A stretch of 64,000 nucleotides of DNA, from positions 36,857 through 100,856 of the forward strand of contig JBDREN010000218.1 of assembly GCA_043819795.1 (NCBI GenBank), written 5' to 3'. Both the position numbers and the translations under genes were made by a program. The DNA is from Elusimicrobiota bacterium. GTDB lineage: Bacteria; Elusimicrobiota; Elusimicrobia; UBA1565. Every line of letters starts with the position of its first letter. Position 1 is the stretch's first letter. The notes under the pieces are model-generated. The model made no database searches and had not been told where the DNA came from. It saw only the letters and a program-made list of their open reading frames with translations. This document shows positions 2,063 through 55,388 of the stretch, piece by piece.

Positions 2063-2131
2063 TAAAAATGTAACAACAATATATACACTTATAGGTAAGG
2101 ATCCGGCCGGCGTCGCGTCCGGACCCACTCT

Positions 2132-4241: not shown

Positions 4242-4253
4242 GGCGCGCCGCCT

Positions 4254-6897: not shown

Positions 6898-6903
6898 AGC
6901 GCC

Positions 6904-19900: not shown

Positions 19901-20243
19901 TCCGCCCGTGGAGAATCTTTTCCGCATCCTGCGCATCCGGACCACGGCCACCACGGTCGGCATCCGCTCGGTCGTGCAGCGGGGCTCCCGCGTCGAGATC
20001 TATTTCCGCCCGGACATGGAGGTGCCGATGCCGGCGATCACGCGCTGGATGAGCGTTTATCAGGATAGGATCGAGTTCGTGCGATCGCCGGAGGGCGACG
20101 GCCTGCGCGTGAGCCTCGGCTCGGAAGCCTCCGGCATCCGGGCCCCGCGGGCGGGGGCCCGCGGGACGGGTGTCCGCGGGGGAGGAGATCCCGTGCGATG
20201 GATCGCCGACTTCCTGGAGGGCCTCAAGCGCGCCCGGCCGTGA
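16941..20243 (+). CDS. mfd: transcription-repair coupling factor
   Basis: Superfamily-2 helicase motifs (GDVGFGKTEVAMRAA, VVDEEHRFGV). A TRG motif region. A CarD-like domain. TTG 16941 or GTG 16968 start. The track ORF 16038.. is an N-terminal over-extension through hemC in another frame. Confidence 0.85.
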   Translation: MRRLVKPIVVSGVPNSGAWAHLALTLLYPAGPSGPLRERLGAGLAAPLILVRESEEDLEDAADAIEALSAAFPPPQGARHAFFGEDPRGRLAALERLHRGAGLVLATAAALEVRVPTREEYAGRRTTVRPGGGPPRGELLKRLGALGYQRVDFVESPGEYAARGAVVDFFPVEPPDAVRVVYDVDTVESLRGFDPQTQATRPGFMEEAVVVPACEREFPRTLGEALAEGGTWVAEAGLAIPGTRGRVLLVGPAPGAREEAVDFGAVSIPPLGLGSSVPAGEAQSSQPLGDRVGAAASRCREWRREGLRVMLFSMNRGEDERVQEMFEGSVPAGSVQFLIGPLRQGFVNRPRGLAVLTSAEIFGRSYRKSRLLKPVVAGRVRVRWRELKKGDFVVHELHGIARYLGLEAVATPEGPGAGGVRSSEDDPSAGPAASPAVMMDCLRLEFRGGDTLFIPMTDFRSVQKYIGSEGHRPRLSSLDTKTWSEVKERVREAVRELAERLLKVHAARRALPGHAFPPGSHMEHEFAESFPFEETPDQLKAISEVAADMTAPHPMDRIVVGDVGFGKTEVAMRAALKCVAGLKQAAVLVPTTILADQHTRTFRKRFAEYPLRIEMLSRFQTKAEQRGILQDLAAGKIDVVIGTHRLFQPDVRFRDLGLLVVDEEHRFGVKHKEALKSLKTHVDCLTLSATPIPRTLNQGFSGLRAISLIQSAPSGRQPIVTEVLAFDEAHVKAAVEAELARGGQVFYVHNRVRSLPQAEARLKSLLPGARIAVAHGQMRSDRLERTMWDFFNRKSDILVASTIIESGLDIPSVNTLLIENAQDFGLSQLYQLRGRIGRERQRAYCALYYPADVKEFRALSEDARKRLEALREFGELGAGLALAMRDLEIRGAGDLLGARQHGFLNAVGVEFYSELLDAEAQKLLGRKPKAVEPRAAHLDVAVPAYIPGDFLPGDLERIQFYKRVLAADEARIEDLRRELIDLSGPLPPPVENLFRILRIRTTATTVGIRSVVQRGSRVEIYFRPDMEVPMPAITRWMSVYQDRIEFVRSPEGDGLRVSLGSEASGIRAPRAGARGTGVRGGGDPVRWIADFLEGLKRARP

Positions 20244-39194: not shown

Positions 39195-39325
39195 TTTGCG
39201 CGGCGGCGGTGAAGCCAGCGCCGGAAGTCCCGACAGGGACCTTCCGGCGCTTACTCCTTTGAGTTATCGGGAATTGTCCGCCCGCCGAAGGCGGGCGAGG
39301 ATCCTTTGTGAAGCAGAGGTGTAAG

Positions 39326-39651
39326 CGCCGGTCGCGCGCAGCGCCAACCGGTCGCTTGCACCGCTGGGTTATAAAGGGAGTCCGCCCCACACCCCGACCC
39401 TCTCCCGCGGGGAGAGGGGGCACTCGGCCCCCTGAACAACGCGCAAGGCCTCCCCGCGGGGGAGGCCTGCGGGCATGCCAGCGCCGGTTGCGCGCAGCGC
39501 CAACCGGTCGCTTGCACCGCTGGGTTATAAAGGGAGTCCGCCCCACACACCCCGACCCTCTCCCGCGGGGAGAGGGAGCACTCGGCCCCCTGAACAAGGC
39601 GCAAGGCCTCCCCGTGGGGGAGGCCTGCGGGCATGCCTGCGGGCATGCCAG
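39326..39651. repeat. two tandem ~156-nt units of a GC-rich intergenic repeat. Each unit carries two 9-bp hairpins (CCCTCTCCC-GCG-GGGAGAGGG and GGCCTCCCC-GCG-GGGGAGGCC).
   Basis: Unit A 39326-39481, unit B 39482-39651, >90% identical. The spurious ORFs 39308..39712 are translations of this repeat. Confidence 0.8.
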
Positions 39652-40408: not shown

Positions 40409-42228
<1,820 letters not shown>

Positions 42229-42239
42229 CCGGCGACATC

Positions 42240-43136: not shown

Positions 43137-43137
43137 G

Positions 43138-44571
43138 ATGGCGCTGTTCGGGACCGACGGCGTCCGAGGCATCCCCGGCGAGCCGCCCCTGACCGCGCGG
43201 GCCGTGCGGCGGCTCGGCCTGGCGACCGCCGCCGTGCTGCTCGAGCGCATCGGAGCGCGCCCGAAAGACGGATCCCGGCCGTTGATCCTCATGGGGCGGG
43301 ACACGCGGAGCTCGGGGCTCTCCGTCGGACGCTGGCTGGCCCGGGGCTTCGCCGAGGCGGGATGCCGCACGGTCGACCTCGGCGTCGTGCCGACGCCGGC
43401 CGTCGCCTACCTGACCCCCGGCCGCCGCGCTCTTTGCGGGACCGTGATCTCGGCGAGCCACAATCCTTCCGAGTTCAACGGCATCAAGTTCTTCACCGCC
43501 GACGGGCTGAAGGCGTCTCCGGAGCTCGAGGGCGCGATCGAATCCCGGCTTTCGGCGCGGGGCGGATGCCTTCCACGCTTGGGTCCCGCGGCCAAGGGGA
43601 CGCGGGGCGGCGCGGAGCGGGAGCCTTCGACGTCCGGGTACGGCGCGTCCCGCCGGGACGCGGGCGCCGTGCGCGACTACGTCGACTTCCTGCGCAGCAC
43701 TTTTCCTCCCTCGCTGGACCTCTCGGGCTTGCGGATCGTGTTCGACGGCTCCAACGGCGCGGCCGCCCGCATCGGCCCCGAGCTCCTGAGCGGACTGGGA
43801 GCGGAGGTCGTCAAGGTCGGGTGCTCCCCGGACGGGACCAACATCAACACCGGGTGCGGGGCCCTGGCGACCGCGAGGATGCAGCGGGAGGTCGTGCGTC
43901 GGCGGGCGCATTGCGGCATCTCGGTCGACGGCGACGCGGACCGCGCTCTCCTCGCCGACGAGCGGGGGCGTTTGCTCGACGGAGACGCCCTGATCGCGCT
44001 TTCAGCGCTGCACCTGCGCGGGAAAGGGCTGCTGCGCGGCGACAAGGTGGTGCTCACGGTGATGTCCAACCTCGGGCTCGTCCGCTTTCTCGCAAGCCGG
44101 GGGATCGGGACCGTGCAGGTCCCCGTCGGGGACCGCAACGTGACGCGGGCGCTGGAAGCCGAGGGGCTGGTCCTCGGCGGGGAGAACTCGGGGCATATCG
44201 TCTTCCGGCGCCTCATCCCCACGGGGGACGGGCTGCTGACCTCCCTGCAGACGCTGGCCGCCTGGATCGAGACGGGAGGGCCGCTCAGCCGCGTCCGCTC
44301 TCTTTACCGGAGCTACCCCCAGATACTGAGGAACGTGCGGGTCGAGCGCAGGGCGCCGCTGGAGAAGCTCGCCGGTTTTCAGCGCGCTCTGCGCGAAGTC
44401 CGTCGAAGGTTGGAGCGGTCGGGCCGCGTTTTCGTAAGATATTCAGGGACGGAGCCCGTCCTCCGCATCCTGGTGGAAGGAGCGGACGGCGCCCTGACCC
44501 GGACGGTCTCCCGGGGGCTGGTCCGGACGTTCCGTCAGGAAGTCGAAATGTGGAGCAAAAAAAAGGAGTGA
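43138..44571 (+). CDS. glmM: phosphoglucosamine mutase
   Basis: FGTDGVRG. Active-site ISASHNPSEFNGIKFF. Carries one copy of the 37-nt intragenic element (43569-43605). Confidence 0.9.
   Translation: MALFGTDGVRGIPGEPPLTARAVRRLGLATAAVLLERIGARPKDGSRPLILMGRDTRSSGLSVGRWLARGFAEAGCRTVDLGVVPTPAVAYLTPGRRALCGTVISASHNPSEFNGIKFFTADGLKASPELEGAIESRLSARGGCLPRLGPAAKGTRGGAEREPSTSGYGASRRDAGAVRDYVDFLRSTFPPSLDLSGLRIVFDGSNGAAARIGPELLSGLGAEVVKVGCSPDGTNINTGCGALATARMQREVVRRRAHCGISVDGDADRALLADERGRLLDGDALIALSALHLRGKGLLRGDKVVLTVMSNLGLVRFLASRGIGTVQVPVGDRNVTRALEAEGLVLGGENSGHIVFRRLIPTGDGLLTSLQTLAAWIETGGPLSRVRSLYRSYPQILRNVRVERRAPLEKLAGFQRALREVRRRLERSGRVFVRYSGTEPVLRILVEGADGALTRTVSRGLVRTFRQEVEMWSKKKE
43569..43605 (+). mobile_element. 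37-nt GC-rich palindromic intragenic element, copy 1 (in glmM, read as LPRLGPAAKGTR)
   Basis: CCTTCCACGCTTGGGTCCCGCGGCCAAGGGGACGCGG. Contains inverted repeats CCCGCG...CGCGGG and GTCCC...GGGAC. Confidence 0.7.
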
Positions 44572-44575
44572 GCCC

Positions 44576-45304
44576 ATGCCCGTCAAGCTTGGAGTGAACA
44601 TCGATCATGTGGCGACCCTGCGCGGGGCTCGCCGCGAGGTGGACCCCGACCCGATCGTCGCCGCCCGCGTGGCGCGGACGTCCGGCGCGGACTTCATCGT
44701 GGCGCACCTGCGAAAGGATCGCCGGCACGTCGAGGAGAAGGACCTCTTCGCCCTGCGCAAGATGATGAAGTCGGGCCTCCACCTGGAGCTGGCCGACGTC
44801 CCGGGGATGATCAAGATCGGGCTCAAGGTCAAGCCGGACTGGGTCTGCATCGTCCCGGAGAGCCGCGACGAGATCACGACTCGAGGCGGGCTCGACCTGC
44901 GGCCCGGCAAAGCGAGCGCTCTCGAGAATACGGTCAAGCGCCTCAAGAGGGCGGGTATCGGCGTGAGCCTGTTCGTCGACCCCGAGGCGGTCAGCGTCCG
45001 GATGGCGCACAATCTGGGGGCCGACGCCGTCGAGCTCTGCACGGCCGCGTACGCGAGGGCGGTCGGCAAACACCGCCAGCTTGCCGAGCTCGAGAAGCTC
45101 GAGCTGGCCGGCTATCTGTGCCGCGAGCTCAAGCTGGATCTGCACGCCGGCCAGGGCCTCGACTACGCGAATGTCATGTCCGTCGCGCGGATCCCTCACA
45201 TGCGGCGCCTCAGCATCGGCTTCTCGATCGTCGCGCGCTCGGTGTTCACCGGTCTCCGGAGCGCCGTGGCGGAGATGAAAAAGCTGGTGGTGGCGGTCCG
45301 CTAG
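44576..45304 (+). CDS. pdxJ: pyridoxine 5'-phosphate synthase
   Basis: LGVNIDHVATLRGARRE..DPDP ... AHLRKDRRHV. Confidence 0.9.
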   Translation: MPVKLGVNIDHVATLRGARREVDPDPIVAARVARTSGADFIVAHLRKDRRHVEEKDLFALRKMMKSGLHLELADVPGMIKIGLKVKPDWVCIVPESRDEITTRGGLDLRPGKASALENTVKRLKRAGIGVSLFVDPEAVSVRMAHNLGADAVELCTAAYARAVGKHRQLAELEKLELAGYLCRELKLDLHAGQGLDYANVMSVARIPHMRRLSIGFSIVARSVFTGLRSAVAEMKKLVVAVR

Positions 45305-45362
45305 ATGCGCGGGGGACGGGTGAAGCGGCAGAGCGCAGCCCGTACTGAGGCCTCTGCCCTTC

Positions 45363-45570
45363 GGAAACGGCCGAAGCGACGGCTCGCCCCCCGGACGGAA
45401 GCACCCCGGGGGAAACGGCCGAAACGGCAGCATGCCCCCCGAACGAGAGCGCCCCGGGGGAAACGGCCGAAACGACAACATGCCCCCCAAACAGAGACAC
45501 CCCTGCGCGGGAAACGGCGACAACGGCAACGCGCCCCCCGAACGGAAGCACCCCCCCGCGGGGGGGGCGC
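45363..45570. repeat. tandem array, about 4 copies of a ~48-nt unit (GGAAACGGCCGAAACG...CCCCCCGAACG...CACCCCGGGG)
   Basis: Unit starts at 45363, 45411, 45458 and 45509. Intergenic, between pdxJ and acpS. Confidence 0.75.
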
Positions 45571-45574
45571 TGGC

Positions 45575-45922
45575 ATGGGCGTCGGTATGGGACTCGACGT
45601 CGTGGAGATCGAACGCATCTCCTCGGTGGCGACGCGCAATCCCCGCTTCCTGGGGCGCGTCTTCTCGGCGGAGGAGCTGCGGTACTGCCGGGGGAAGAGG
45701 AATAAGTGGCAGCACTTCGCCGTCCGCTTCGCGGCGAAGGAGGCCGTCTGGAAGGCGGTCGGCCGCGAGGGCCTGCGGTTGCGGGACATCTCGATCCGGC
45801 GCAGCCCCCTCGGCCGCCCGAGCGTCTTGCTGGAGGGACGTCTCGCGCCGGACATACAGATATCCCTCTCTCACAGCGCCCGGTACGCGATGGCCGTCGC
45901 GCTCTATCTGAGGCGGACGTGA
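45575..45922 (+). CDS. acpS: holo-[acyl-carrier-protein] synthase
   Basis: MGLDVVEIERI ... FAAKEAVWKA. The track ORF start 45305 runs through the tandem repeat and is not real. Confidence 0.8.
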   Translation: MGVGMGLDVVEIERISSVATRNPRFLGRVFSAEELRYCRGKRNKWQHFAVRFAAKEAVWKAVGREGLRLRDISIRRSPLGRPSVLLEGRLAPDIQISLSHSARYAMAVALYLRRT

Positions 45923-46929
45923 AGCACTTCTCGCTTAAGAGCCTCAGGCGGTGGCTGCCGCCGCGGCCGCGCGAGGCGCACAAGGGTGACTTCGGCCACG
46001 TGCTCATCATCGCCGGCTCGCGCGGCATGACGGGCGCGGCCGTGCTCGCGGCCCGCGGGGCGCTCCGGTCCGGGTGCGGCCTCGCGACGGTGGCTGTTCC
46101 GGAGAGCCAGCAGCCCGTGGTCGCCGGCCACCTGGCCGAGGCGATGACGCTGCCGCTCCCCGAGACCACCGGCGGGGCGATCCGGGCCGACGCCGTAGGG
46201 CGGCTGTTGGCCTCGCATCAGAAGCGGGACTACACGGTTCTGGCGATCGGCCCCGGCCTCGGCACGGGATCGGAGACCGCGCGCGCGGTCGTCGGCGCCC
46301 TCGGCAGCCTCAGGATCCCGGCCGTGATCGACGCCGACGCGATCAACATCCTGGCCCTGAACTCGCGCGGCGCGGTCCGGACGCTGCTCGAGCGCCGCGG
46401 GGCCCCGTACATCTTCACCCCCCATCCCGGGGAGATATCCCGCTTGTTGCGCTCGAAGACGGCCTCGGTGATGGCGGATCGGGAGGCGGCCGCGCGCCTG
46501 CTCTGCAGCGAGCTCGGCGGGGTGTGCCTCCTCAAGGGTCGGGGCAGCCTCGTCACCGACGGCCGGCGTCTCTGGCGCAACCCGACCGGCAACCCGGGCC
46601 TGGCGAAGGGAGGCTCCGGAGACGCCTTGACCGGCATCGTCACGGGCATCTGGAGCCAGCGTCTGCTGATGCCTTCCACGCCTGGGTCCCGCGGCCAAGG
46701 GGACGCGGAACTGATGTCCGGGAACGCCCCGGGACCCGGCCGTCCGGACCAGGTCCGGCGCTCGGAGCCCGCCTTCCTCACCGACGACGGGTTTGAAGCG
46801 GCCGCGCTCGGCGCCTACCTGCACGGATTCTCCGCCGACCGCGCCGCGAAGGATAAGACCACCCGCGCGCTGCTGGCCTCCGACGTGATCGAGGCGCTCC
46901 CGGCGGCTTTCATCAAGCTGGGGGGATAG
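45919..46929 (+). CDS. nnrD: NAD(P)H-hydrate dehydratase (YjeF C-terminal domain / carbohydrate-kinase fold)
   Basis: GHVLIIAGSRGMTGAAVLAARGALRSGCGL ... GGSGDALTG. GTGA overlap with acpS. Carries element copy 2. Confidence 0.75.
   Translation: MKHFSLKSLRRWLPPRPREAHKGDFGHVLIIAGSRGMTGAAVLAARGALRSGCGLATVAVPESQQPVVAGHLAEAMTLPLPETTGGAIRADAVGRLLASHQKRDYTVLAIGPGLGTGSETARAVVGALGSLRIPAVIDADAINILALNSRGAVRTLLERRGAPYIFTPHPGEISRLLRSKTASVMADREAAARLLCSELGGVCLLKGRGSLVTDGRRLWRNPTGNPGLAKGGSGDALTGIVTGIWSQRLLMPSTPGSRGQGDAELMSGNAPGPGRPDQVRRSEPAFLTDDGFEAAALGAYLHGFSADRAAKDKTTRALLASDVIEALPAAFIKLGG
46672..46708 (+). mobile_element. 37-nt intragenic element, copy 2 (in nnr, read as PSTPGSRGQGDA)
   Basis: CCTTCCACGCCTGGGTCCCGCGGCCAAGGGGACGCGG. 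Confidence 0.7.
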
Positions 46930-47921
46930 TGGCCCTCGCCGACGGACCGACGATCTCCGAGGCCGGCGAGCGCGGGCTGCTGCGTCCGATCATGAAAGCC
47001 TTCCGGGCGCGTCGTGGCCGCGGGATATTGATCGGTCCCGGGGACGACGCCGCGGCGGTGCGCGTTCCGAAGGGCAAGGTCCTGGTGGTCAGCCAGGACG
47101 ATCTCGCGGAGTGTACCCATTTCGAGCGGGGCTGGGCCGATCCGCGCCGCGTCGCCGGCCGGCTTCTGGCGATCAACCTCAGCGACCTCGCCGCGATGGG
47201 GGACGTCCGTCCTTTGGGCTGCGTTATCTCGGCGGGCCTGCCGCCCGACCTGCCGAAGGCTTGGTTCGAACGGTTCCTGGCGGGAATGAGGCGCGCCTCG
47301 GACCGGCACGGCTGTCCGGTCCTGGGCGGTAATCTCTCCCGTTCCGTAAGGATTTTCCTCACTCTATGCGTGTTCGGCGCCGCGGCGCCCCGGCGCTTGG
47401 TCCGCCGGAGCGGAGCGCGGCCGGGGGACGTCCTCGCGGGCGTCGGACCTCTCGGAGAGGCGGCCGCCGGCTTGGATCTGGTGCGGGCGCGGACCGCGGT
47501 CCCCGCGTGGGGACGGGCCCTGGCGCGCCGGTTCTGGGAGCCCGAGCCTCGACTGGGCGCCGGCCGGGAGCTCGCCGGCGTCGCGACGAGCCTCATGGAC
47601 AATTCCGACGGGCTGGAGCGGTCCGCCGAGATCCTCGCGGCGGAATCCCGCGTGCGGCTGCGTCTTTCCCTCGAAGAGGCGCCGGCCTCGCGCGCCTTGC
47701 GGCGCTGGTGCCGCGAACGGAGGCGAGCGGTGCGCCCGCACCAGTATCAGTCCGGAGAGGATTATGGATTGGTCTTCACCGCGCCGCCGCGGGCTTGGAT
47801 GCGCATCCGGCGCCGCCTGCCCGGCGCCTATAAGCTCGGCGAGGTCCTCCGCGGCCGAGGGGTCCGCGCGGACGGGCTGGAACGTATCGGGCGTCTTGCG
47901 AGGTTCGAGCACTTCGCCTAG
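46929..47921 (+). CDS. thiL: thiamine-monophosphate kinase
   Basis: AIR-synthase-related fold (ILIGPGDDAAAVRVP, VVSQDDLAECTHFERGW, INLSDLAAMG). Confidence 0.75.
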   Translation: MALADGPTISEAGERGLLRPIMKAFRARRGRGILIGPGDDAAAVRVPKGKVLVVSQDDLAECTHFERGWADPRRVAGRLLAINLSDLAAMGDVRPLGCVISAGLPPDLPKAWFERFLAGMRRASDRHGCPVLGGNLSRSVRIFLTLCVFGAAAPRRLVRRSGARPGDVLAGVGPLGEAAAGLDLVRARTAVPAWGRALARRFWEPEPRLGAGRELAGVATSLMDNSDGLERSAEILAAESRVRLRLSLEEAPASRALRRWCRERRRAVRPHQYQSGEDYGLVFTAPPRAWMRIRRRLPGAYKLGEVLRGRGVRADGLERIGRLARFEHFA

Positions 47922-47929
47922 GCCACCTC

Positions 47930-48472
47930 ATGAGACCGCCCCGAGCCTTGACGGCGTCGTTCGACAGCGACAGCGAACGGGAGACGATGCGGCTGGCCGC
48001 GAGGCTCGCCAAGCGCGCGAGGCCGGGGAGCGTCCTCTGCCTGGCCGGACCGCTCGGCAGCGGCAAGACGACCTTCGCGCGGGGATTTTTGCGCGGTCTC
48101 GGCTTCAAGGGCGCGGTCCGGAGCCCCACGTTCGTGCTCATCAACGAGTACCGGAAGGTCCGCCCCCCCGTCTACCATGTCGACCTCTTCCGGGCCGGGG
48201 CGGGCGACCTCGAGAACACGGGGCTGGAGGAATGCCTCTGCGATCCCGGCGCCGTGTGCCTGATCGAATGGCCGGAAGCGGCGCTTGGGCTCCTGCCGCG
48301 CGACCGTCTCGAGATCGTGTTCCGGCACGCGCGGGGCGGGGGGCGGGGCCTCCGCTTGCGCGCCGCCGGGCCGGCCTCCCGCGCCTTCCTGAAAGTCCAC
48401 GGCTCGGGCGCGGGGCGGAAGCCTTCCACGCCCGGGTCCCGCGTCCAAGGGGACGCGGGGGGCGTCCCATGA
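47930..48472 (+). CDS. tsaE: tRNA threonylcarbamoyladenosine biosynthesis protein TsaE
   Basis: P-loop LAGPLGSGKTTFARG. Carries element copy 3 at the extreme C-terminus. Confidence 0.8.
   Translation: MRPPRALTASFDSDSERETMRLAARLAKRARPGSVLCLAGPLGSGKTTFARGFLRGLGFKGAVRSPTFVLINEYRKVRPPVYHVDLFRAGAGDLENTGLEECLCDPGAVCLIEWPEAALGLLPRDRLEIVFRHARGGGRGLRLRAAGPASRAFLKVHGSGAGRKPSTPGSRVQGDAGGVP
48422..48458 (+). mobile_element. 37-nt intragenic element, copy 3 (in tsaE C-terminus, read as PSTPGSRVQGDA)
   Basis: CCTTCCACGCCCGGGTCCCGCGTCCAAGGGGACGCGG. Confidence 0.7.
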
Positions 48473-49125
48473 GGATACTCGCGGTCGACACGACCGGCGA
48501 GGGGCTCACGTTGGCCCTCGCCGACGGGAAGTCTCTCTGGCGGACGCGCCGGGCGGGAACGAAAGCGCAGGACGAGGAGCTGTTCCCGGCCCTGGAGAGG
48601 CTCCTCGGCCGGGCGGGATGCGGGATCAAGGACCTCGAAGCCGTCGCGGCCGCGAACGGCCCCGGCCGCTTCACCGCGATCAGGATCGGCCTGACCTTCG
48701 CGACCATGCTGGCGCGCTCGATCGGGATCCCCGTCGCCGCGGTGAGCCGCTTCGAGGCGTTCGCGGACCGGCTTCGCTCCCGGCGCTTCCAAGAGGGCCT
48801 TTACGGGGTCGTTTTCCACGCGCCGCGGGAGGAGCTTTACCTGCAGTGCTTCCGGAAGCGGGCGGGGTCGGTGAGGCCGGCGGACGCCGCGAGGTGGCTG
48901 CGGACGGAGGATTTGCGGGCCGCCTTCCCGGCCCCCCCGATCTTCTGCGGGCCGGCCGCTTTCGAGGCCGCGGCGCGAGCCGGGGGGGCGGGAGTCCTGG
49001 AGGGGCAGCCTCCGCCCACGGCGGCGGACCTTCTCGGACCCGCGCGTGAGAGGCTCGCTTCCGGGTCGCCAGGCTCGTGCCGGCCGCTGTACCTTAAGCC
49101 GGCCAACTTCCAGAAGGCCAGATAG
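48469..49125 (+). CDS. tsaB: tRNA threonylcarbamoyladenosine biosynthesis protein TsaB
   Basis: MRILAVDTTGEGLTLALADG ... GPGRFTAIRIGL. ATGA overlap with tsaE. Confidence 0.8.
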   Translation: MRILAVDTTGEGLTLALADGKSLWRTRRAGTKAQDEELFPALERLLGRAGCGIKDLEAVAAANGPGRFTAIRIGLTFATMLARSIGIPVAAVSRFEAFADRLRSRRFQEGLYGVVFHAPREELYLQCFRKRAGSVRPADAARWLRTEDLRAAFPAPPIFCGPAAFEAAARAGGAGVLEGQPPPTAADLLGPARERLASGSPGSCRPLYLKPANFQKAR

Positions 49126-49388
49126 GGCTTTCCCCAATTCCTCCAGTAGGCGTTTAAAGAGGGCGCCCCATCCCGGGGAGCGGACTGAGCCGTTTTGGAG
49201 CACCGCGGGGATGGGAGGGACCCGGGCGGCAGGACCCGTCCCGCCTGCGAAAGGGACCCCGTACTGGAGGGCCTGGGGAATCCGTATCGCGTTGTGGGTC
49301 CGGCGGCGAATTATTATAATGTCGTCGCGGAAGCCCTCCTCATGGACGCAGGCCGTTCACCGCGGACCATGGTGACGGCCTGCCACGA

Positions 49389-51518
49389 ATGAAGAAGTCT
49401 CTTTTCTCCCTTCTGATTCTCGCCTGCCTGCTGTCGCCGTCCGGGCTGTCCGCGGCGACGAAGGCGGCCTACATGCACTATCTGAAGGCCCTTCTCCTTT
49501 CGAACCAATCGCAGTATGCGGAGGCATTGAGGGAGTACGAGGCCGCGCTCGAGCTCGATGCGCAATCGGCTTTCATGTGCCAACAGGCCGCCGAGCTCGC
49601 GCTCGGCATGGGGCGGACGGAACGCGCGCTGGAGTTCGCGGGGCGCTTCGTCGAGCTCTCTCCCGAGGATCCGGAGGCCCATCATCTCCTCGGGAGCGTG
49701 CACTGGGCTCGCGGCGACGTCGACCGGGCGAAGGCGGCGTTCGAGAAGACCCTCGAACTCAACCCCGGCCATCAGGACGCCCTGCTCGCCCTCGGGAACC
49801 TCCTGAGCGCCCAGTCTCCCGACACGGCCAAGAAGTATCTGCGGGACTACATCGCCGAGAATCCGGAGGACGCCTCCGAGGCCGAGTATCATATCGCCCT
49901 CATGGAGCAGAAGGCCGGGCGCGTCGGCGAGGCCATCGTCGGCTTCCGACGTTCGATCGAAGCCGACCCCGGCAACATGCACGCGCGCTACGCCCTAGCC
50001 CAGCTTTTCGAGATGCGGCGCGATACCGAGGCGGCTCTGGCGGAGTACGTCGGGATCCTCGAGCGGGACTCCCAGAACGTCATCCTTCTCAACCATGTCG
50101 GCGAGATCCACTACATCATGGAGGATCTCGATTCCGCGCGCGACATGTTCCTGAGGGCGAAGTCGATCAGCCCGGCCGACCCGGCAGCCTGCCTTTGGTT
50201 GGCGATCCTGGCCGAGAAGGCGGAGGACTTCACGACCGCGGCCGCCTACGTGAAAGACAGCGCGGCTCTCGGCGAGGATTCGTCGCTGAACCTGCGCCTG
50301 AGCTATTACCTCACACAGGCCGATCTGCTGAAAGATGCCGTCAGGGTCCTCGAGGTCGCGAACGGGAAATGGCCGGAGAACGAGGACATCGCCTATTTCC
50401 TCGCGCTGGGCTACGATGACTTAAAGCGCCGCGTGAAGGCCATCGCTCTCATGAAGGACATCATCGAGCGCCGGCCCGAGCACCGGGACGCGCGTTTCCA
50501 GCTCGGGGCGATGTACGAGAAGGGGGGCGACATCGCGAACGCCGAGCTCCATTTCCGCGAGCTTCTGCGCAGGCATCCCAACGACGCCTCGGCTTTGAAC
50601 TACCTCGGCTACTCGCTCGCCGACCGGGGGCTGAAGCTCGACGAGGCGGAGGCCCTCATCCGCCGGGCGGTGGAGCTCGATCCGGACAGAGGCGCCTACG
50701 TGGATTCGCTGGGCTGGATCCACCACAAGCAGGGACGCCGGCAGGAGGCGCTTCGCGAGCTGAAGGCGGCGGCGCAGCTTCTGCCCGACGACGAGACCAT
50801 CTGGGACCATCTGGGAGACGCCTACCGCGTGAGCGAGGACACGGCGTCGGCCTGGGAATCCTGGAAGATGGCGCAGTCGTTGGCCCCGGGGAAGGTGAAG
50901 GTCGAGCGCAAGCTTGCGGAAGTCGAGGGGCTCTTCTCCCCCCGGGAGCTGGGCGCCCGGTACCTGGCGCTGCTGAGGCGTTCCCTCGGGAACCTCGCGA
51001 GCTACGGCGGCCCTTGCGTGATCGAGGGAAGCATCGGCGGGCGCGCCTTTCGTTTCCAGGGGATACTCCACTACAAGGCTCCTTGGGACCTGAGCGTCGA
51101 CGTATTCGGGCCCATGTTCGTCCCGGTCTTCCGCGTCGCGCTTTCGGGCCGGGAGGGTTTCGAGATGGATCCCCTCCAACTAGACGGTGTCGCGCCCGAC
51201 GCCCTGCACGAGAGCCTGTACGGCGCCCTAGGCTTCCTCAGGGAGTACTTGGAGGGCGGCCTCTTCAAGGACCGGCCAGCCGAGTACCGGAAGGGATGGC
51301 GACGCTCCCGGATCGACACGGAGGGCGCAAGCCTCGTCCTCGACAAGGCGCGCATTCGCCTGAGCTCCGTCAAGGGCGCGGAAGGGAAGGACCTCCGGCT
51401 GGAGCTTTCCGACTACCGCTCGGTCGCGGGCCGGTGGGTCCCGGCGACGCTCAAGCTCGATGGCGGCGGCTTCTCGTTCGTCTTCCGGCTCCACCGGCCC
51501 AGCATCCGGTTCGACTAG
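49389..51518 (+). CDS. secreted multi-TPR protein with C-terminal non-TPR domain
   Basis: Signal peptide MKKSLFSLLILACLLSPSGLSAAT. At least 10 TPR-like units. A perfect TATAAT lies at 49313-49318 upstream. Confidence 0.7.
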   Translation: MKKSLFSLLILACLLSPSGLSAATKAAYMHYLKALLLSNQSQYAEALREYEAALELDAQSAFMCQQAAELALGMGRTERALEFAGRFVELSPEDPEAHHLLGSVHWARGDVDRAKAAFEKTLELNPGHQDALLALGNLLSAQSPDTAKKYLRDYIAENPEDASEAEYHIALMEQKAGRVGEAIVGFRRSIEADPGNMHARYALAQLFEMRRDTEAALAEYVGILERDSQNVILLNHVGEIHYIMEDLDSARDMFLRAKSISPADPAACLWLAILAEKAEDFTTAAAYVKDSAALGEDSSLNLRLSYYLTQADLLKDAVRVLEVANGKWPENEDIAYFLALGYDDLKRRVKAIALMKDIIERRPEHRDARFQLGAMYEKGGDIANAELHFRELLRRHPNDASALNYLGYSLADRGLKLDEAEALIRRAVELDPDRGAYVDSLGWIHHKQGRRQEALRELKAAAQLLPDDETIWDHLGDAYRVSEDTASAWESWKMAQSLAPGKVKVERKLAEVEGLFSPRELGARYLALLRRSLGNLASYGGPCVIEGSIGGRAFRFQGILHYKAPWDLSVDVFGPMFVPVFRVALSGREGFEMDPLQLDGVAPDALHESLYGALGFLREYLEGGLFKDRPAEYRKGWRRSRIDTEGASLVLDKARIRLSSVKGAEGKDLRLELSDYRSVAGRWVPATLKLDGGGFSFVFRLHRPSIRFD

Positions 51519-51524
51519 AACCAT

Positions 51525-52421
51525 ATGCCGCTCTCGGTCCAAGTGCAATGTCCGGCGAAGGTGAACCTCTTCCTGGAGGTGACGGGGCGGCGCCGGGACG
51601 GCTACCATAACCTGGCGACTCTGTTCGCGAAGATCAACCTTTTCGACGTGCTGGACGTCGAGGCCGCTCCTTCGGGCTTCGAGCTGGAGATCGCCGACGA
51701 GACCGGCCAGCGGCTCGCGGCCGGGCCCGACAATCTGGTGCTCGTGGCCGCCCGGGCCTTCCGTAAGGCCTTCCGCCTCGGAATGGGCGCCCGGTTCCTG
51801 CTCACGAAGCGGATCCCGGTCGGCGCGGGGCTCGGCGGCGGGTCGTCGGACGCCGCGGGGACGTTGATCGCCCTGGCGCGACTGTACCGGATGGAACTCG
51901 ACCGGAGCCGGACGGCCGTGGTCCGACGGATCGCCCGGGAGATCGGGGCCGACGTTCCCGTGTTCCTCCGCCGGGAGGCTGTCTGCGAGGGGCGCGGCAT
52001 CGGGGAGCGGCTGGCGCCCGTGACGCCCGCGAAGGCCCTGCCTTGGATGCTCCTGGTATTCCCGGGAGTCTCGGTATCCACGGGTGACGTCTACGGGCGC
52101 CTGAAGGGGCGAACGCGCAAATCCGTCTTGACGAGGCTCACCCATCTTGATACACTCAAAAAAAAGCTAGAAAAAGGAAGGCCTGTCCCGGAATGGGGCG
52201 GTCTCCTTTTCAACCGCCTGGAAGAGGCGGTCTTGGATTATCATCCGGAGGTCGAACAGGCCAAGACAATACTGAAGCGTTTGGGGCTCGCGGGCGTGCT
52301 CATGACGGGCTCCGGAGCCGCGGTATACGGGTTTGTCCGTTCCCGGACGGAGGGTGAACGGGTCCTCAAGCTGGTCCAAGGCTATCCGTGGAAGATCATC
52401 CTTACATGTTGCCTCGGTTGA
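51525..52421 (+). CDS. ispE: 4-diphosphocytidyl-2-C-methyl-D-erythritol kinase
   Basis: CPAKVNLFLEV ... GHM kinase motif PVGAGLGGGSSDAA. Confidence 0.9.
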   Translation: MPLSVQVQCPAKVNLFLEVTGRRRDGYHNLATLFAKINLFDVLDVEAAPSGFELEIADETGQRLAAGPDNLVLVAARAFRKAFRLGMGARFLLTKRIPVGAGLGGGSSDAAGTLIALARLYRMELDRSRTAVVRRIAREIGADVPVFLRREAVCEGRGIGERLAPVTPAKALPWMLLVFPGVSVSTGDVYGRLKGRTRKSVLTRLTHLDTLKKKLEKGRPVPEWGGLLFNRLEEAVLDYHPEVEQAKTILKRLGLAGVLMTGSGAAVYGFVRSRTEGERVLKLVQGYPWKIILTCCLG

Positions 52422-52451
52422 GCTGACAACTTTCGGGAGGCATAGGCATCA

Positions 52452-52766
52452 ATGGAAATCACCGAGATCAGGGTCCACCTGCGCGACGAGGAGAAGCTGA
52501 AGGCCTTCGTGACCGTCACGTTCGACTCGTGCTTCGTCGTGCGGAACATGAAGATCATCGAGGGAAACAAGGGCCTCATCCTCTGCATGCCTTCCCGGAA
52601 GCTTCCGAACGGCAACTATAAGGATGTCGCCCATCCGATCACGATGGAGTTCCGCAAGTTTCTGGAGGAGAAGATCATGGCGGCGTACGAAGAGGAGATC
52701 AAGAAGGCGGGCGCGGGCGGTACCCGCCCGGCCGGGCGGACGGACCCGGCGGGGCCCTCAAACTGA
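52452..52766 (+). CDS. spoVG: septation protein SpoVG
   Basis: MEITEIRVHLRDEEKLKAFVTVTFDSCFVVRNMKIIEGNKGLILCMPSRK. Confidence 0.9.
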   Translation: MEITEIRVHLRDEEKLKAFVTVTFDSCFVVRNMKIIEGNKGLILCMPSRKLPNGNYKDVAHPITMEFRKFLEEKIMAAYEEEIKKAGAGGTRPAGRTDPAGPSN

Positions 52767-52777
52767 TTTGCGCCCAC

Positions 52778-52848
52778 TCCCGGGTGGTGTAACGGTAACA
52801 CACCAGCCTTTGGAGCTGGGTTTCTAGGTTCGAGTCCTAGCCCGGGAA
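52778..52848 (+). tRNA. tRNA-Gln (anticodon TTG)
   Basis: Manual fold. Acceptor UCCCGGG/CCCGGGA (U1-A72). D-stem GUGU/ACAC. Anticodon stem CCAGC/GCUGG with loop CUUUGGA (U33, anticodon UUG). T-arm CUAGG-UUCGAGU-CCUAG. CCA not encoded. Confidence 0.8.
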
Positions 52849-52884
52849 TTCTTCTTCCAGCGCGATGATGAATACCAAGGAGTC

Positions 52885-54333
52885 ATGAAAGGAGCGAAAA
52901 AGAAGGGGACGCGGGCAGGCGCGCTCGGCATCCTGATCCTGGCGGCCGGCAAGGGAACGCGGATGCAGTCCGCACTGCCCAAGGTCCTGCATCCCCTCGG
53001 CGGGCGTCCGATGATCTACTATCTGCTGCGCATCGCCAACGCGCTGAAGCCGGACGGCATCGGCGTGGTGGTGGGGCATCAGGAGGAGATCGTCCGCACG
53101 CGGATCCAGGAGGCCGTCAAGAGCTGGGGGATCTCGCGGCCGCTGACCTTCATCCGCCAGTCGCTCCCCACGGGCTCGGGCCCGGCCGTTCTGGAGTCCC
53201 TGCCGTTTTTGAGGAGGTTCCAGAGGGCGCTGGTGATGTGCGGCGACTCGCCGCTGTTGACCTTCGACACGGTCTTCGCGCTCCTCAACCGCAGCCGGTC
53301 CGAGAAAGGGCAGGTGACGATGCTCACGGCCCGGTTCCGGGACCCGCAAGGTTACGGGCGCGTCGTCCGTTCCCCGGTCGGCGACGTGCTCCGCATCGTG
53401 GAGAGCTCGGAGGCGAACGCGAAGGAGTCGGCCATCAACGAGGTCAACTCGGGGACGTACTGTTTCGAGGTGCCGCTGCTCGTGAACGCCGTCAAGCGGC
53501 TCGCGCCGAAGATCGCGGGGCGGAATCCTTCCACGCCTGGGTCCCGCGGCCAAGGGGACGCGGGACGCGAGGTATTTCTGGGGGATTGCTTGGAGCACAT
53601 CCGTTCGCAGGGGGGGCGGGTGACGGCTTTCATGAGCTCGACGCCTGAGGAGGTGGTCGGGATCAACACGCGGGTCCAGCTGGCTCAGGCCGAGCGGATC
53701 CTGAACCGGCGCATGCTCGAGCGTCTCATGATGGCCGGGGCCACGGTCGTCGATCCCAATCATACCTACGTGGACGCCGACGTCGAGATCGGCCAGGACA
53801 CGGTGATCCTGCCTGGCACGATCCTGCGGGGGAAGACGAAGATCGGCAGGCAGTGCCGCATCGGGCCCTACGCGACGATCGAGGACTGCTCGGTGGGCAA
53901 CGAGTGCGAGGTCGTCTACTCCTACCTCCGGGATGCCCGCATCCTCGAGAAGTCCTGCGTCGGGCCGTTCTCCCATGTCCGGCACGGCACCGTGGCGGGG
54001 CCGCGGGCCAAGATCGGCAGCTTCTCCGAGGTAAAGTCCTCGAGGATCGGATACGGCTCCAAGGTCCCTCACCTCAGCTACGTCGGCGACGCGGAGATCG
54101 CCGAGGACGTCAACATCGGGGCCGGGACGATCACCTGCAACTACGACGGGAAGGGCAAGCACAAGACGACGATCGCCGCCAAGGCCTTCGTCGGCTCGAA
54201 CGTGAACTTCGTGGCGCCCGTTAAGATCGGCCGGGGCGCGAGGATCGGGGCCGGCTCGACGATCACCGAGGACGTCCCCGCGGGGAGCTTGGCGATCGCG
54301 CGCAGCCGCCAGGTCAACAAAGGAGAGCGATGA
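52885..54333 (+). CDS. glmU: bifunctional UDP-N-acetylglucosamine pyrophosphorylase / glucosamine-1-phosphate acetyltransferase
   Basis: LAAGKGTRM. Left-handed beta-helix hexapeptide repeats in the C-terminal half. Carries element copy 4. Confidence 0.9.
   Translation: MKGAKKKGTRAGALGILILAAGKGTRMQSALPKVLHPLGGRPMIYYLLRIANALKPDGIGVVVGHQEEIVRTRIQEAVKSWGISRPLTFIRQSLPTGSGPAVLESLPFLRRFQRALVMCGDSPLLTFDTVFALLNRSRSEKGQVTMLTARFRDPQGYGRVVRSPVGDVLRIVESSEANAKESAINEVNSGTYCFEVPLLVNAVKRLAPKIAGRNPSTPGSRGQGDAGREVFLGDCLEHIRSQGGRVTAFMSSTPEEVVGINTRVQLAQAERILNRRMLERLMMAGATVVDPNHTYVDADVEIGQDTVILPGTILRGKTKIGRQCRIGPYATIEDCSVGNECEVVYSYLRDARILEKSCVGPFSHVRHGTVAGPRAKIGSFSEVKSSRIGYGSKVPHLSYVGDAEIAEDVNIGAGTITCNYDGKGKHKTTIAAKAFVGSNVNFVAPVKIGRGARIGAGSTITEDVPAGSLAIARSRQVNKGER
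53527..53563 (+). mobile_element. 37-nt intragenic element, copy 4 (in glmU linker, read as PSTPGSRGQGDA)
   Basis: CCTTCCACGCCTGGGTCCCGCGGCCAAGGGGACGCGG. Confidence 0.7.
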
Positions 54334-55352
54334 AAGCGGAGAGTCTGACTCTGGCGGGGGGGAAGGAGGCGACGATGAAGAAATCGCCCGAGCCGCGGCC
54401 GTTCGAGCCGGCCTCTGGGACGAGGCAGATGCTGCTGTTTTCGGGCAACGCGCACCGTCCGCTGTCCGAGCAGATCGCCGAGTACCTCGGCATTCAGGTC
54501 GGAGCGGCCGTTGTGGGGCGCTTCGCCGACGGCGAGATCAGCGTCCATGTCGAGGAGAACGTCCGCGGCAAGGACTGCTATGTGGTCCAGCCGACCTGCC
54601 GTCCGGTCAACGAGAACCTCATGGAGCTCTTGATCATGATCGACGCCCTGAGGCGGGCGAGCGCGGGCCGCATCACGGCCGTGATCCCGTATTTCGGGTA
54701 CGCCCGCGCCGATCGCAAGTCGGAGCCGCGGGTGGCGCTGTCGGCGAAGCTGGTCGCCAACCTCATCACCGGTGCGGGGGCCGACCGGGTGATCACCGTC
54801 GATCTCCATGCGGGGCAGATCCAGGGCTTTTTCGACATCCCTCTCGACAACATCTACGCGATGCCCGTCTTTCTGAAGTACCTGAAATCGAAGAAGATCA
54901 GGGACGTCGTGGTCGTCTCTCCGGACGTCGGGGGCGTCGAGCGGGCGCGAGGATTCGCGAAGCGCCTCCGGGCCGGCCTGGTGATCATCGACGAGCGCCG
55001 TCCGCGTCCCAACGAGGCCTCGGTCTACAACGTCATCGGCGAGGTGGCGGGCAAGAACGCCGTGATCGTCGACGACATGGTGGATACCTCCGGGACGCTC
55101 GTGGCCGTCGCAAAGCGGCTCAAGGAGGAGGGCGCCCTCAGCGTGTGCGGGGCCTGCTCTCACGGGGTGCTCTCCGGCGACGGGGTCGACCTCGTGGAGC
55201 GCTCCGATCTGGAGGAGCTGATCGTTACCGACTCGATCCCGCTGCAGCGTCCACCAGAGAGTAAGATCACCGTGCTGTCGGTCGCGCCGCTGCTGGGCGA
55301 GGCGATCCGCCGCAATCATCGCGGGGAGTCGATCAGCGAACTTTTTGTGTGA
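54330..55352 (+). CDS. prs: ribose-phosphate pyrophosphokinase
   Basis: LFSGNAHRPLSEQIAEYLG ... GRFADGEISV. PRPP-binding VVDDMVDTSGTL. Exact start uncertain (54330 or ~54375). Confidence 0.85.
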   Translation: MKAESLTLAGGKEATMKKSPEPRPFEPASGTRQMLLFSGNAHRPLSEQIAEYLGIQVGAAVVGRFADGEISVHVEENVRGKDCYVVQPTCRPVNENLMELLIMIDALRRASAGRITAVIPYFGYARADRKSEPRVALSAKLVANLITGAGADRVITVDLHAGQIQGFFDIPLDNIYAMPVFLKYLKSKKIRDVVVVSPDVGGVERARGFAKRLRAGLVIIDERRPRPNEASVYNVIGEVAGKNAVIVDDMVDTSGTLVAVAKRLKEEGALSVCGACSHGVLSGDGVDLVERSDLEELIVTDSIPLQRPPESKITVLSVAPLLGEAIRRNHRGESISELFV

Positions 55353-55388
55353 GGGGCGGGGGATCCCGATCCCTAAGGGAGAATCGTC

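Follow-up and report, generated by a model that had tools for sequence, protein, structure and literature searches.

An in-frame 45-nt hairpin repeat in co-oriented housekeeping genes of an uncultured Elusimicrobiota bacterium

A short, GC-rich palindromic sequence recurs inside four unrelated genes of an Elusimicrobiota contig, which raises the questions of what the sequence is, whether it was inserted and how it spread. All copy counts given here rest on one 64-kb window, the whole stretch of DNA analysed, which is part of a single contig of one Elusimicrobiota MAG. The 37-nt pattern proposed in the initial annotation has four exact matches with no mismatches (43569-43605, 46672-46708, 48422-48458 and 53527-53563), all on the + strand and, as that annotation had stated, in the orientation of the host gene. 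There was no match in 100 dinucleotide-preserving shuffles, so none is expected by chance. The four 37-mers vary at three positions and are 95-97% identical. The conserved sequence is longer than the proposed 37 nt: in three copies it extends upstream by another 13 nt, CGCGGGGCGGAWK, and the full unit is 45 nt (15 codons), composed of this 13-nt arm and a 32-nt core, CCTTCCACGCYYGGGTCCCGCGKCCAAGGGGA. An inserted length of 45 nt is also given by the GlmU alignment, and the 45-nt copies differ pairwise at 3-5 of 45 positions.

As first described, three copies are read in one frame (frame A, PSTPGSRGQGDA, in nnr, tsaE and glmU) and one in another (frame B, LPRLGPAAKGTR, in glmM only). The canonical unit is open in six of six frames and its translation contributes 15 residues, rich in Gly, Pro, Ser and Arg, to a loop or tail. 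Folding gave a single hairpin and not the nested inverted repeats that had been proposed. The 3' half of the core and the CGCGGG that follows it make up a 9-bp hairpin with an AAGG loop (CCCGCG-K-CC / AAGG / GG-A-CGCGGG), leaving 29 nt of conserved non-hairpin sequence within the unit. The variable G/T site (K) lies in the hairpin, where T replaces a G.A mismatch with a U-A pair, and the hairpin of copy 3 (K=T) is perfect. Hairpin energies were no better than those of shuffles of equal composition (z -0.1 to -1.95). No Rfam family matched the unit, and reading of the sequence revealed no T-tract for termination at the unit and no GTAG or CGTC tag, as defined in PMC3733652, beside the stem.

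Table 1. Host genes and copies of the repeat unit in the 64-kb window.
Feature	Position	Strand	Description
glmM, phosphoglucosamine mutase, MFH1726388.1	43138..44571	+	Pfam PGM_PMM I-IV
nnrD, NAD(P)HX dehydratase	45916..46929	+	Pfam Carb_kinase domain only; start codon uncertain
tsaE, MFH1726393.1	47930..48472	+	Pfam TsaE
glmU, MFH1726398.1	52885..54333	+	Pfam GlmU
Copy 1, in glmM	43556..43610	+	13-nt arm CGCGGGGCGGATG, 32-nt core, 10-nt repeat
Copy 1, arm-start repeat CGCGGGGCGG	43601-43610	+	10 nt
Copy 1, hairpin	about 43585-43606	+	glmM reads copy 1 in frame B, GGCLPRLGPAAKGTR
Second, degenerate unit of glmM, tandem to copy 1	43611..43666	+	frame A, EREPSTSGYGASRRDAG
Copy 2, in nnrD	46666..46716	+	CTGATG, 32-nt core, CGCGGAA, CTGATG; frame A, MPSTPGSRGQGDAEL
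Copy 3, in tsaE C-terminal extension	48409..48460	+	arm CGCGGGGCGGAAG, core, repeat CGCGGGG; frame A
Copy 4, in glmU	53514..53564	+	arm CGCGGGGCGGAAT, core, repeat CGCGGG
Probable degenerate copy, mfd C-terminal tail after TRCF domain	20115..20170	+	third frame, EASGIRAPRAGARGTG

Alignments of orthologues bear out the claim of a lineage-specific insertion. Copy 4 is an exact 45-nt (15-aa) insertion, IAGRNPSTPGSRGQG: 13 relatives (63-74% identity) have an exact 15-aa gap at the unit, and M. tuberculosis GlmU (3D8V/3FOQ) lacks the same 15 aa. Placed by alignment with M. tuberculosis GlmU and by established GlmU domain boundaries, the site is the NNAQ loop inside the N-terminal uridyltransferase domain and not, as had been thought, the interdomain linker, whose helix starts about 25 residues later. 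A loop location was nevertheless correct, as residues 210-229 are coil with pLDDT <50 in the AlphaFold model, with confident helices on both sides. NnrD, which is the dehydratase half only, has 33 additional aa in all, 15 of them accounted for by the unit, and its loop is 42 residues compared with 2 in T. maritima Nnr and 7-9 in close relatives. GlmM is 15 aa longer than B. subtilis GlmM and 15-19 aa longer than its relatives. The extra residues ascribed to glmM are present (about 15), but glmM has two tandem units here and either could be the insertion. In TsaE the unit lies within a C-terminal extension of about 35 aa that ends at the tsaB start codon, and the TsaE of the closest relative (140 aa) is without the unit-bearing extension. 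Copy 3 ends 9 nt before the tsaB ATG (48469), with which the TGA stop of tsaE overlaps. All four copies are inside + strand ORFs and keep the frame, as reported, but the tsaE copy occupies an extension at a gene junction and not conserved protein.

Every added unit has the same orientation and lies in coding sequence or at a gene junction within a run of co-oriented housekeeping genes, and we are confident that the unit represents lineage-specific inserted repeat DNA that is tolerated in frame. It was absent from the same sites in all relatives, and the flanks outside the unit, compared among copies, had no common similarity. In-frame insertion is tolerable because the unit is a multiple of three and open in every frame; a further reason is that it is placed in variable loops, between domains or in a C-terminal tail. 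The host genes are annotated by NCBI as intact proteins. Since each of these proteins is a singleton 90% cluster, we infer mobility rather than observe it. The hosts had been called four essential genes; however, nnr is not essential in model bacteria.

No copy of the unit was found in 1.4 Mb of syntenic DNA from relatives, in GTDB representative genomes, or in IMG/VR, plasmid and phage collections, and the one match in JGI metagenomes was judged to be chance. When 1.84 billion cluster representatives were searched with a profile of the frame-A peptide, none proved to be a carrier. Within the window, the original count of four holds for intact copies, but two degenerate ones must be added, the second of them as probable. 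The first is the tandem unit in glmM (43611-43658, about 48 nt, followed by CGCGGG), which had 66% identity in a repeat search, matched copy 3 at 87% over 31 nt by blastn-short (E=0.003) and gave a Smith-Waterman score of 41, above all 5000 null windows. The second, in the tail of mfd, is probably an old degenerate copy, judging by 68% identity in the repeat search and a Smith-Waterman score of 31, which exceeds the maximum of 5000 nulls. Neither nhmmer nor blastn supported this candidate and it overlaps a 15-nt tandem repeat; the Mfd tail is about 21 aa longer than that of T. thermophilus. Intergenic copies and head-to-head dimers were absent from the 64 kb.

How the unit spread is suggested by its flanks. 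Exact direct repeats with a period of 45 flank copies 1-4 (10, 6, 7 and 6 nt, respectively), and the background chance of a period-45 run of at least 6 nt is 0.041 per site. The flanking repeat is the same sequence (CGCGGG...) at three of the four copies and so, instead of microhomology, could represent a sequence-specific target or belong to a longer element. At copy 2 the repeat is CTGATG, which by itself would arise by chance with a probability of about 0.04, and the junction of this copy is permuted, with the well-conserved 13-nt arm 3' of the core. The intact copies span no more than 10 kb of the 64 kb (P=0.013 for four random sites), although the clustering argument is weakened because the probable mfd copy is 23 kb away. 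By GC skew, all copies are oriented along the leading strand. A Pfam scan of the approximately 50 ORFs in the window detected only housekeeping families and no transposase, reverse transcriptase or integrase.

Our preferred reading, held as a whole with moderate confidence, is that the unit is a miniature interspersed repeat, of the REP, RPE or MIRU type in kind, that was spread by homology-guided templated copying. We infer that a classical transposon with inverted ends was not the route of spread; that templated or microhomology copying took the place of a dedicated enzyme is a more tentative proposal. Copying would be associated with replication. A nascent strand whose end matches the unit over a short stretch (CGCGGG..., once CTGATG) would mispair with an existing copy, one 45-nt period would be copied from it, and the strand would then rejoin its own template where the short match recurs. 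Such a process would explain the constant 45-nt length and the 6-10-nt period-45 direct repeats that each copy has, the permutation at the junction of copy 2 and the presence of a tandem pair in glmM, as well as the uniform orientation, the confinement of intact copies to 10 kb and the lack of a nearby transposase. To our knowledge, no mechanism that makes such dispersed templated insertions is established in bacteria.

The initial annotation compared the unit to Rickettsia palindromic elements (RPEs). The comparison is apt for a GC-rich hairpin repeat that is in frame and lineage-specific, but the unit lacks the defining features of an RPE. In accounts of RPEs (Ogata et al. 2000, as summarised in PMC3184786 and PMC10969869), they are, like the unit, repeated palindromic sequences that lie in frame in unrelated housekeeping genes and are translated into an extra peptide compatible with protein function; neither has an associated transposase (for the unit, within the window). 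By the same accounts, RPEs are about 105-150 bp compared with 45 bp, belong to Rickettsia (Alphaproteobacteria) and not Elusimicrobiota, and are genome-wide, with 44 insertions in R. conorii as against four intact copies in 10 kb of the window. The short period-45 direct repeats at each copy are another difference. The assertion that such an element had not been described was overstated, as palindromic REPs of only 20-40 bp that lie within coding regions are known, among them the short RPE-4 and RPE-6 families (PMC3733652). Like the unit, GTAG/CGTC REPs (Di Nocera et al. 2013, PMC3733652) are short GC-rich stem-loops (stems 5-13 bp, loops 2-20 nt) that can be wholly inside ORFs, often twice per gene or at ORF ends, and add short peptides. 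Unlike them, the unit includes its 29 nt of conserved non-hairpin sequence and, in the window, is without an unpaired tag by the stem, head-to-head dimers, extragenic copies or a RAYT. Membership in the RPE, GTAG/CGTC REP and MITE families was considered and rejected on their defining features.

MIRUs, as outlined in PMC3184786 (after Supply et al. 1997), are also GC-rich with internal inverted repeats, about 40-100 bp and operon-oriented; their open reading frames join or overlap flanking genes, and they are found either as single units or as short tandem arrays. The glmM tandem pair fits this outline, as does copy 3 with its place at the tsaE-tsaB junction. In the same outline MIRUs are intercistronic, whereas three copies of the unit are inside conserved coding sequence. 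The host phyla differ, and MIRU and unit are compared here by description.

The mobile GC clusters, or double-hairpin elements, of fungal mitochondria are likewise short GC-rich palindromes inserted in frame in protein-coding genes, but they belong to organellar genomes with an AT-rich background and have a different presumed mechanism. Heterocyst-forming cyanobacteria reportedly carry dispersed repeats on a scale of about 20 nt that are putatively mobile, have no known transposase and are sometimes in tandem. These are said to be, like the unit, very small and without known transposase; sequence, size and host differ. Small dispersed repeats of these cyanobacteria (Elhai et al. 2008) are mentioned in PMC2884548. 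Rickettsia-type repeat DNA inside genes is a known but rare phenomenon, of which the unit is a new example in an uncultured Elusimicrobiota bacterium, with a spread pattern that is unusually local and has short homologies at the flanks.

It is possible, though doubtful, that the unit belongs to the conventional REP-type elements and is moved in trans by a single-strand-specific tyrosine transposase (HUH/Y1, RAYT or IS200/IS605-like) whose gene lies elsewhere in the genome. Such an enzyme would recognise the hairpin, insertion would take place beside a short specific target (CGCGGG), and the copies in the window would be the intragenic few of a larger, mostly intergenic family. IS200/IS605 enzymes act on the lagging-strand template, and the uniform leading-strand orientation is the bias expected of them; the small unit, its single GC-rich hairpin with an unpaired 5' segment and the recurrence of CGCGGG at junctions point the same way, and other phyla have documented intragenic REPs, such as those of Opitutus terrae (PMC3733652). 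However, the stem has no GTAG or CGTC tag, no Y1 transposase is encoded among the window ORFs, and in the 64 kb neither intergenic copies nor head-to-head dimers accompany the clustered intact ones. The permuted junction of copy 2 is not predicted by cleavage at fixed ends, and the peptide search, as noted above, found no carrier.

The unit could instead be native glmM loop sequence, duplicated in tandem and then copied to nnrD, the tsaE-tsaB junction and glmU, in which case the element is a dispersed micro-duplication of a gene fragment with targets 3-10 kb downstream. This is a version of our preferred reading with a specified origin. We regard it as unlikely, although the intact glmM copy may be native loop sequence. 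glmM has two tandem units, yet its loop exceeds those of orthologues by only about 15 aa, and removing either unit raises the fit to the relatives' profile by an equal 8-10 bits. In the glmM frame the intact unit, ESRLSARGGCLPRLGPAAK, aligns without gaps to the native loop of one relative (L008), EHRLSPEGQACRRRVPAAK, at 10 of 19 positions; a [GVA]PA(A)K motif at this loop position is common to relatives, and when windows are ranked by their nucleotide similarity to the unit the loops of relatives fall in the top 1-2%. Every intact copy is within 10 kb downstream of glmM. Against this origin, the loops resemble the unit only marginally (P 0.02-0.06; ranks 41-86 among about 4250 windows) and the loop is of low complexity, the copy flanks contain no glmM-derived sequence outside the unit, and the probable mfd copy is upstream and old. 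In addition, SRRDAG, with which the degenerate unit ends on its 3' side, matches the native SRDADG of the closest relative, although this match fits equally an old insertion joined via microhomology.

Retention for a function, either as an operon RNA or DNA hairpin (processing or stability, pausing, protein binding) or as a useful peptide module, seems very unlikely. Such roles have been proposed for REPs (PMC3733652, PMC3184786). The four copies are highly conserved, one variable site improves the hairpin, and copy 3 lies a short way before the tsaB start, a position at which structure could influence translational coupling. However, reading in two or three frames leaves no common peptide, the hairpin has neither T-tract nor Rfam family and is no more stable than shuffles, relatives all do without the unit, and the sites are unrelated loops of unrelated enzymes. 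That the unit is an assembly, adapter or chimera artefact is least credible of all, even though the source is one MAG contig and the host proteins are in no second assembly: we know of no common sequencing adapter that it resembles, plasmid/vector and phage records have no match, degenerate copies exist, and the mutually divergent copies each lie in a collinear, otherwise intact gene with the frame kept.

Conserved genes of this lineage, and of this lineage only, carry a repeated 45-nt DNA unit added in frame, in loops or tails of the encoded proteins. The initial annotation had described a 37-nt element, and its four copies are all exact matches to the 37-mer, which gave no chance match in 100 dinucleotide-preserving shuffles; the feature is real. 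Searching all 64 kb of the window with a profile revealed no further strong copy. The stated length did not survive alignment of the copies with their flanks, which extended the conservation 13 nt upstream in three copies (CGCGGGGCGGAWK) and set the inserted length at 45 nt, which can be divided into a 13-nt arm and a 32-nt core (CCTTCCACGCYYGGGTCCCGCGKCCAAGGGGA). The canonical unit is open in all six reading frames. Translation agreed with the two frames described before: glmM reads LPRLGPAAKGTR, whereas nnr, tsaE and glmU read PSTPGSRGQGDA.

Window coordinates of the repeat copies, the sequence beside them and other features, with the direct repeats that flank the intact copies
Feature	Position	Flanking repeat (length)
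Copy 1, glmM (37-mer match)	43569	CGCGGGGCGG (10 nt)
Copy 2, nnrD (37-mer match)	46672	CTGATG (6 nt)
Copy 3, tsaE (37-mer match)	48422	CGCGGGG (7 nt)
Copy 4, glmU (37-mer match)	53527	CGCGGG (6 nt)
Second, degenerate unit, glmM	43611-43658	
Probable old copy, mfd C-terminal tail	20115-20170	
nnr ORF	45916-46926	
Lineage-specific stretch, nnrD (19 residues)	46717-46785	
Lineage-specific stretch, tsaE (~20 residues)	48340-48408	
acpS ORF	45305-45922	
48-nt tandem repeat	45363-45554	
158-nt tandem repeat	39324-39641	
55-nt repeat pair	22327-22381 and 22423-22477	
Mfd CarD/TRCF RID domain	~18135-18285	
FliG/TPR ORF with nearby MotA/ExbB-family gene	2099-4111 and 6898-7707	
ORF with no Pfam match	4242-6584	
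33-nt tandem repeat in that ORF	5276-5352	

Pfam searches bore out the assigned hosts: two of them encode GlmM and GlmU, a third TsaE and the fourth an NAD(P)HX dehydratase. This last gene, nnr, has the Carb_kinase (NAD(P)HX dehydratase) domain only, and the YjeF_N epimerase domain was not detected. The host proteins are annotated as intact by NCBI (MFH1726388.1 and neighbouring accessions) and are all singletons when clustered at 90%, so that no second strain is represented. The window GlmU has 100% identity to an NCBI protein from an Elusimicrobiota MAG (101-kb contig), and identity to its next relatives is 74% or less. Exactly 15 of its residues, IAGRNPSTPGSRGQG, are missing from 13 of 13 relatives (63-74% identity), and M. 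tuberculosis GlmU has the identical 15-residue gap, at the NNAQ loop. In the AlphaFold model, GlmU residues 210-229 form a coil with pLDDT <50, flanked by confident helices. The insert is in a loop as had been proposed, located within the N-terminal uridyltransferase domain and not in the interdomain linker.

Extra residues relative to orthologues were also found in NnrD and GlmM, and in all three proteins they are lineage-specific. The original idea of a repeat carried in frame inside genes was right, with corrections to several details. NnrD has about 42 residues between two conserved helices, compared to 7-9 in its closest relatives and 2 at this position in T. maritima Nnr; the unit supplies 15 of the extra residues, with 19 more beside it. 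In GlmM, Pfam domains I and II are joined by a loop that exceeds its B. subtilis counterpart by 15 residues and those of the relatives by 15-19. In TsaE the unit is part of a C-terminal extension of about 35 residues that the 140-aa TsaE of the closest relative lacks. The tsaE stop and the tsaB ATG overlap, and the unit ends 9 nt upstream of that ATG; this copy is really at a gene junction. The lineage-specific stretches beside the unit in nnrD and tsaE were tried as decayed copies and rejected (P = 0.57 and 0.075, respectively); neither has significant similarity elsewhere in the window.

Directly 3' of copy 1, glmM contains a second, degenerate unit, after which CGCGGG occurs again. Its ungapped identity is 66%, rising to 87% over 31 nt when compared to copy 3, and its Smith-Waterman score is higher than that of all 5000 null windows. 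The C-terminal tail of mfd probably holds an old copy, judging from a Smith-Waterman score that likewise exceeds all nulls (5000 windows); this candidate is without support from BLAST or nhmmer and overlaps a 15-nt tandem repeat. There are two tandem units in glmM, yet the extra residues are worth only one. Profile scoring to pick which unit is the insertion ended in a tie, as deletion of either raised the fit to the relatives' profile equally, by 8-10 bits. In the glmM frame, translation of the intact unit gives an ungapped match to the native loop of one relative, L008 (10 of 19 positions), and the relatives have a [GVA]PA(A)K motif in common at the loop position; at the nucleotide level, similarity of the unit to their glmM loops ranks only in the top 1-2%. 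The native loop may have been overwritten by an old unit, or it may itself be the progenitor of the family.

As listed in the table, the two sides of every intact copy repeat one sequence exactly, in direct orientation and at a period of 45 nt. In the background, runs of 6 nt or longer occur at this period with a probability of 0.041 per site. Sequence outside the arm, core and repeat showed no similarity from one copy to another, and a donor signal, sought as extended homology among the flanks, was not found. The junction of copy 2 is permuted. Its core is preceded by CTGATG only, the upstream neighbour being host sequence (QRL codons common to the closest relative), and a good arm copy (CGCGGAACTGATG, 10/13) lies 3' of the core, so that the total is 45 nt here too. 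An element that has fixed ends and duplicates its target does not fit copy 2 and the GlmU copy alike. All six copies, four intact and two degenerate, are on the + strand in + strand genes, and each is in an ORF or at a gene junction; the 64-kb window contains no inverted pairs. The four intact copies are confined to 10 kb, for which random placement gives P = 0.013. G+C content of the window is 64-74% throughout, and the + strand is probably the leading strand because GC skew is positive nearly throughout, with a rising cumulative curve.

The 22-nt core pattern had no match in a set of one genome per GTDB species, which does not contain the source MAG, and none in IMG/VR. The sole match in JGI metagenomes (positions 146-167 of L001, a 1.6-kb contig) was rejected as chance, since its 22 nt have flanks unlike the unit; it lies inside a phage-like HNH endonuclease ORF, and the contig also encodes a lysozyme-like protein. 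A 56-nt version of the unit was absent from plasmid and phage records. No copies were found in 80 loci around glmM of relatives (1.4 Mb), nor did the syntenic loci of the closest relatives show a comparable repeat native to them. When a profile of the frame-A peptide was compared to 1.84 billion cluster representatives, the only matches were unrelated GQGDAG-repeat (haemagglutinin-like) proteins, which were discarded. Rfam 15 has no covariance model that matches the unit, and a scan of 42000-55500 in E-value mode found tRNA-Gln only.

The unit behaves like an RPE, REP or MIRU but lacks what defines RPEs, REPs, MITEs and MIRUs. RPEs are in-frame insertions of ~105-150 bp in Rickettsia genes (PMC10969869, PMC3184786). 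The unit too is an in-frame insertion in conserved ORFs that is missing from orthologues (GlmU, NnrD, GlmM); at 45 bp it is too short for an RPE (PMC3184786, PMC10969869), and its host is an Elusimicrobiota MAG and not Rickettsia. MIRUs, of 40-100 bp and oriented like their operon, have open frames joining flanking cistrons (PMC3184786). Similarly, the 45-bp unit is co-oriented with genes, copy 3 extends tsaE to the overlapping tsaB start and the tandem pair in glmM matches the single or tandem occurrence of MIRUs. In contrast to MIRUs, which lie between genes, the unit is mostly intragenic (three copies) and its host is an Elusimicrobiota rather than Mycobacterium. MITEs have terminal inverted repeats of 15-30 bp, whereas the ends of the unit, beginning CGCGGGGCGG and finishing CCAAGGGGA, are not reverse complements and its only inverted repeat is an internal hairpin. 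The target-site duplication of a MITE is fixed in length and variable in sequence; the repeats here are of unequal length, three of the four contain CGCGGG and one junction is permuted.

A single hairpin is formed by the 3' part of the core and the CGCGGG after it (CCCGCG-K-CC, AAGG loop, GG-A-CGCGGG). The G/T polymorphism at K faces the hairpin A, so that the 9-bp stem is perfect in copy 3 (T) and has one G.A mismatch in the others. The hairpin was no more stable than shuffles of equal, very GC-rich composition (z -0.1 to -1.95) and is consequently a fact of the sequence rather than a statistical signal. The 9-bp stem and 4-nt loop fit the GTAG/CGTC super-family of REPs (stem 5-13 bp, loop 2-20 nt; PMC3733652). 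REPs of 20-40 bp that lie inside ORFs and encode short peptides are documented, RPE-4, RPE-6 and the Opitutus terrae repeats among them (PMC3733652). By the definition of the super-family (PMC3733652) the unit differs in having no unpaired GTAG or CGTC at the stem end; the + strand flanks read ...GGGT, stem, GCGG..., and the sole CGTC (minus strand) is within the paired stem. REPs are also mostly extragenic, with frequent head-to-head dimers or clusters (PMC3733652); in the window the unit has neither extragenic copies nor head-to-head dimers.

We infer that the unit is copied through a replication-associated template switch that homology guides. An existing copy, which always carries one short match on either side at a distance of 45 nt, would serve as the donor. 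Such a switch would account for the constant length, the junction repeats and the permuted copy 2 junction, as well as for the glmM tandem pair, uniform orientation and local spread. Every copy has the form H-X-H, where H is one 6-10-nt match found on both sides at a distance of 45 nt, and because of this structure the unit may be a self-perpetuating template: a nearby nascent strand ending in H could gain one extra period. The family may stem from native glmM loop-coding sequence and may now seed neighbouring genes. The full combination of enzyme-free propagation by template switching at replication forks, possible origin in the glmM loop and self-seeding into neighbours is improbable as a whole; if it held, bacteria could generate interspersed in-frame repeats with no need of a transposase. 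In a more remote variant, pieces of a circular or concatemeric form of the unit would have integrated, which the junction of copy 2 would also fit.

The main rival, itself doubtful, supposes a REP-like element whose mobility would depend on a Y1 (RAYT/IS200-type) transposase from another part of the genome. Uniform orientation and the recurrence of CGCGGG at the junctions are consistent with it, while the permuted junction, the missing GTAG/CGTC tag, the lack of intergenic copies in the window and the clustering of intact copies argue against it. Approximately 50 ORFs of the window belong to housekeeping families only, and no gene for a RAYT (Y1 HUH) transposase, the enzyme associated with GTAG-type REPs, was found among them. 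It is unlikely that the repeat is a functional motif, and a shared protein motif was rejected because the unit is translated in different frames; an assembly artefact is likewise unlikely. Readings as a terminator, tRNA fragment, CRISPR repeat, attachment site or G-quadruplex were dismissed, given no T-tract, no Rfam or ARAGORN match, irregular kilobase-scale spacing and long loops between G-tracts.

Insertions of this kind have been known since 2000; we found no description of such repeats in Elusimicrobia in the literature. If our interpretation is true, repeat DNA in protein-coding genes extends to a poorly known phylum with a 15-codon unit, and the loops of GlmU, GlmM and NnrD are natural evidence that at least 15 foreign residues can be accepted. 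How RPEs, CGTC REPs and MIRUs move is not known, and the present case, unusually small and local, would be an unusually clean one, with its constant 45 nt, homology at both junctions, permuted junction and tandem pair, and with copies clustered locally where no transposase is close by. The unit could render the copying mechanism of such repeats testable. Inserts like these can cause errors when gene lengths and pseudogenes are called from MAGs, and they are possible strain markers.

Other repeats were observed in the window. The upstream part of the acpS ORF, in which the Pfam ACPS domain begins only at residue 95, contains 3.9 copies of a 48-nt tandem repeat (79% matches) between pdxJ and acpS, of multiple-of-three length and read in the acpS frame as 16-aa repeats (RGKRPKRQHAPRTxAP). 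A 158-nt unit with GC-rich hairpins (CCCTCTCCCGCGGGGAGAGGG) is present as two tandem copies (95% identity) in the intergenic region from which a hybrid histidine kinase/response regulator gene (minus strand) and a phosphoribosyltransferase gene diverge. The 55-nt repeats, 96 nt apart and 87% identical, have a CCCGCC-TGCG-GCGGG hairpin and are at the start of a LolA-like ORF. The Mfd RID domain has 80 residues, compared to a Pfam profile of 57 positions, implying an insertion of about 23 residues that is rich in Gly, Pro, Ser and Ala and shows no similarity to the 45-nt unit. Finally, one ORF has TPR repeats at its C-terminal end in addition to the middle and C-terminal domains of FliG. Close to it are a MotA/ExbB-family gene and two large ORFs without a Pfam match, one of which contains a 33-nt tandem repeat.
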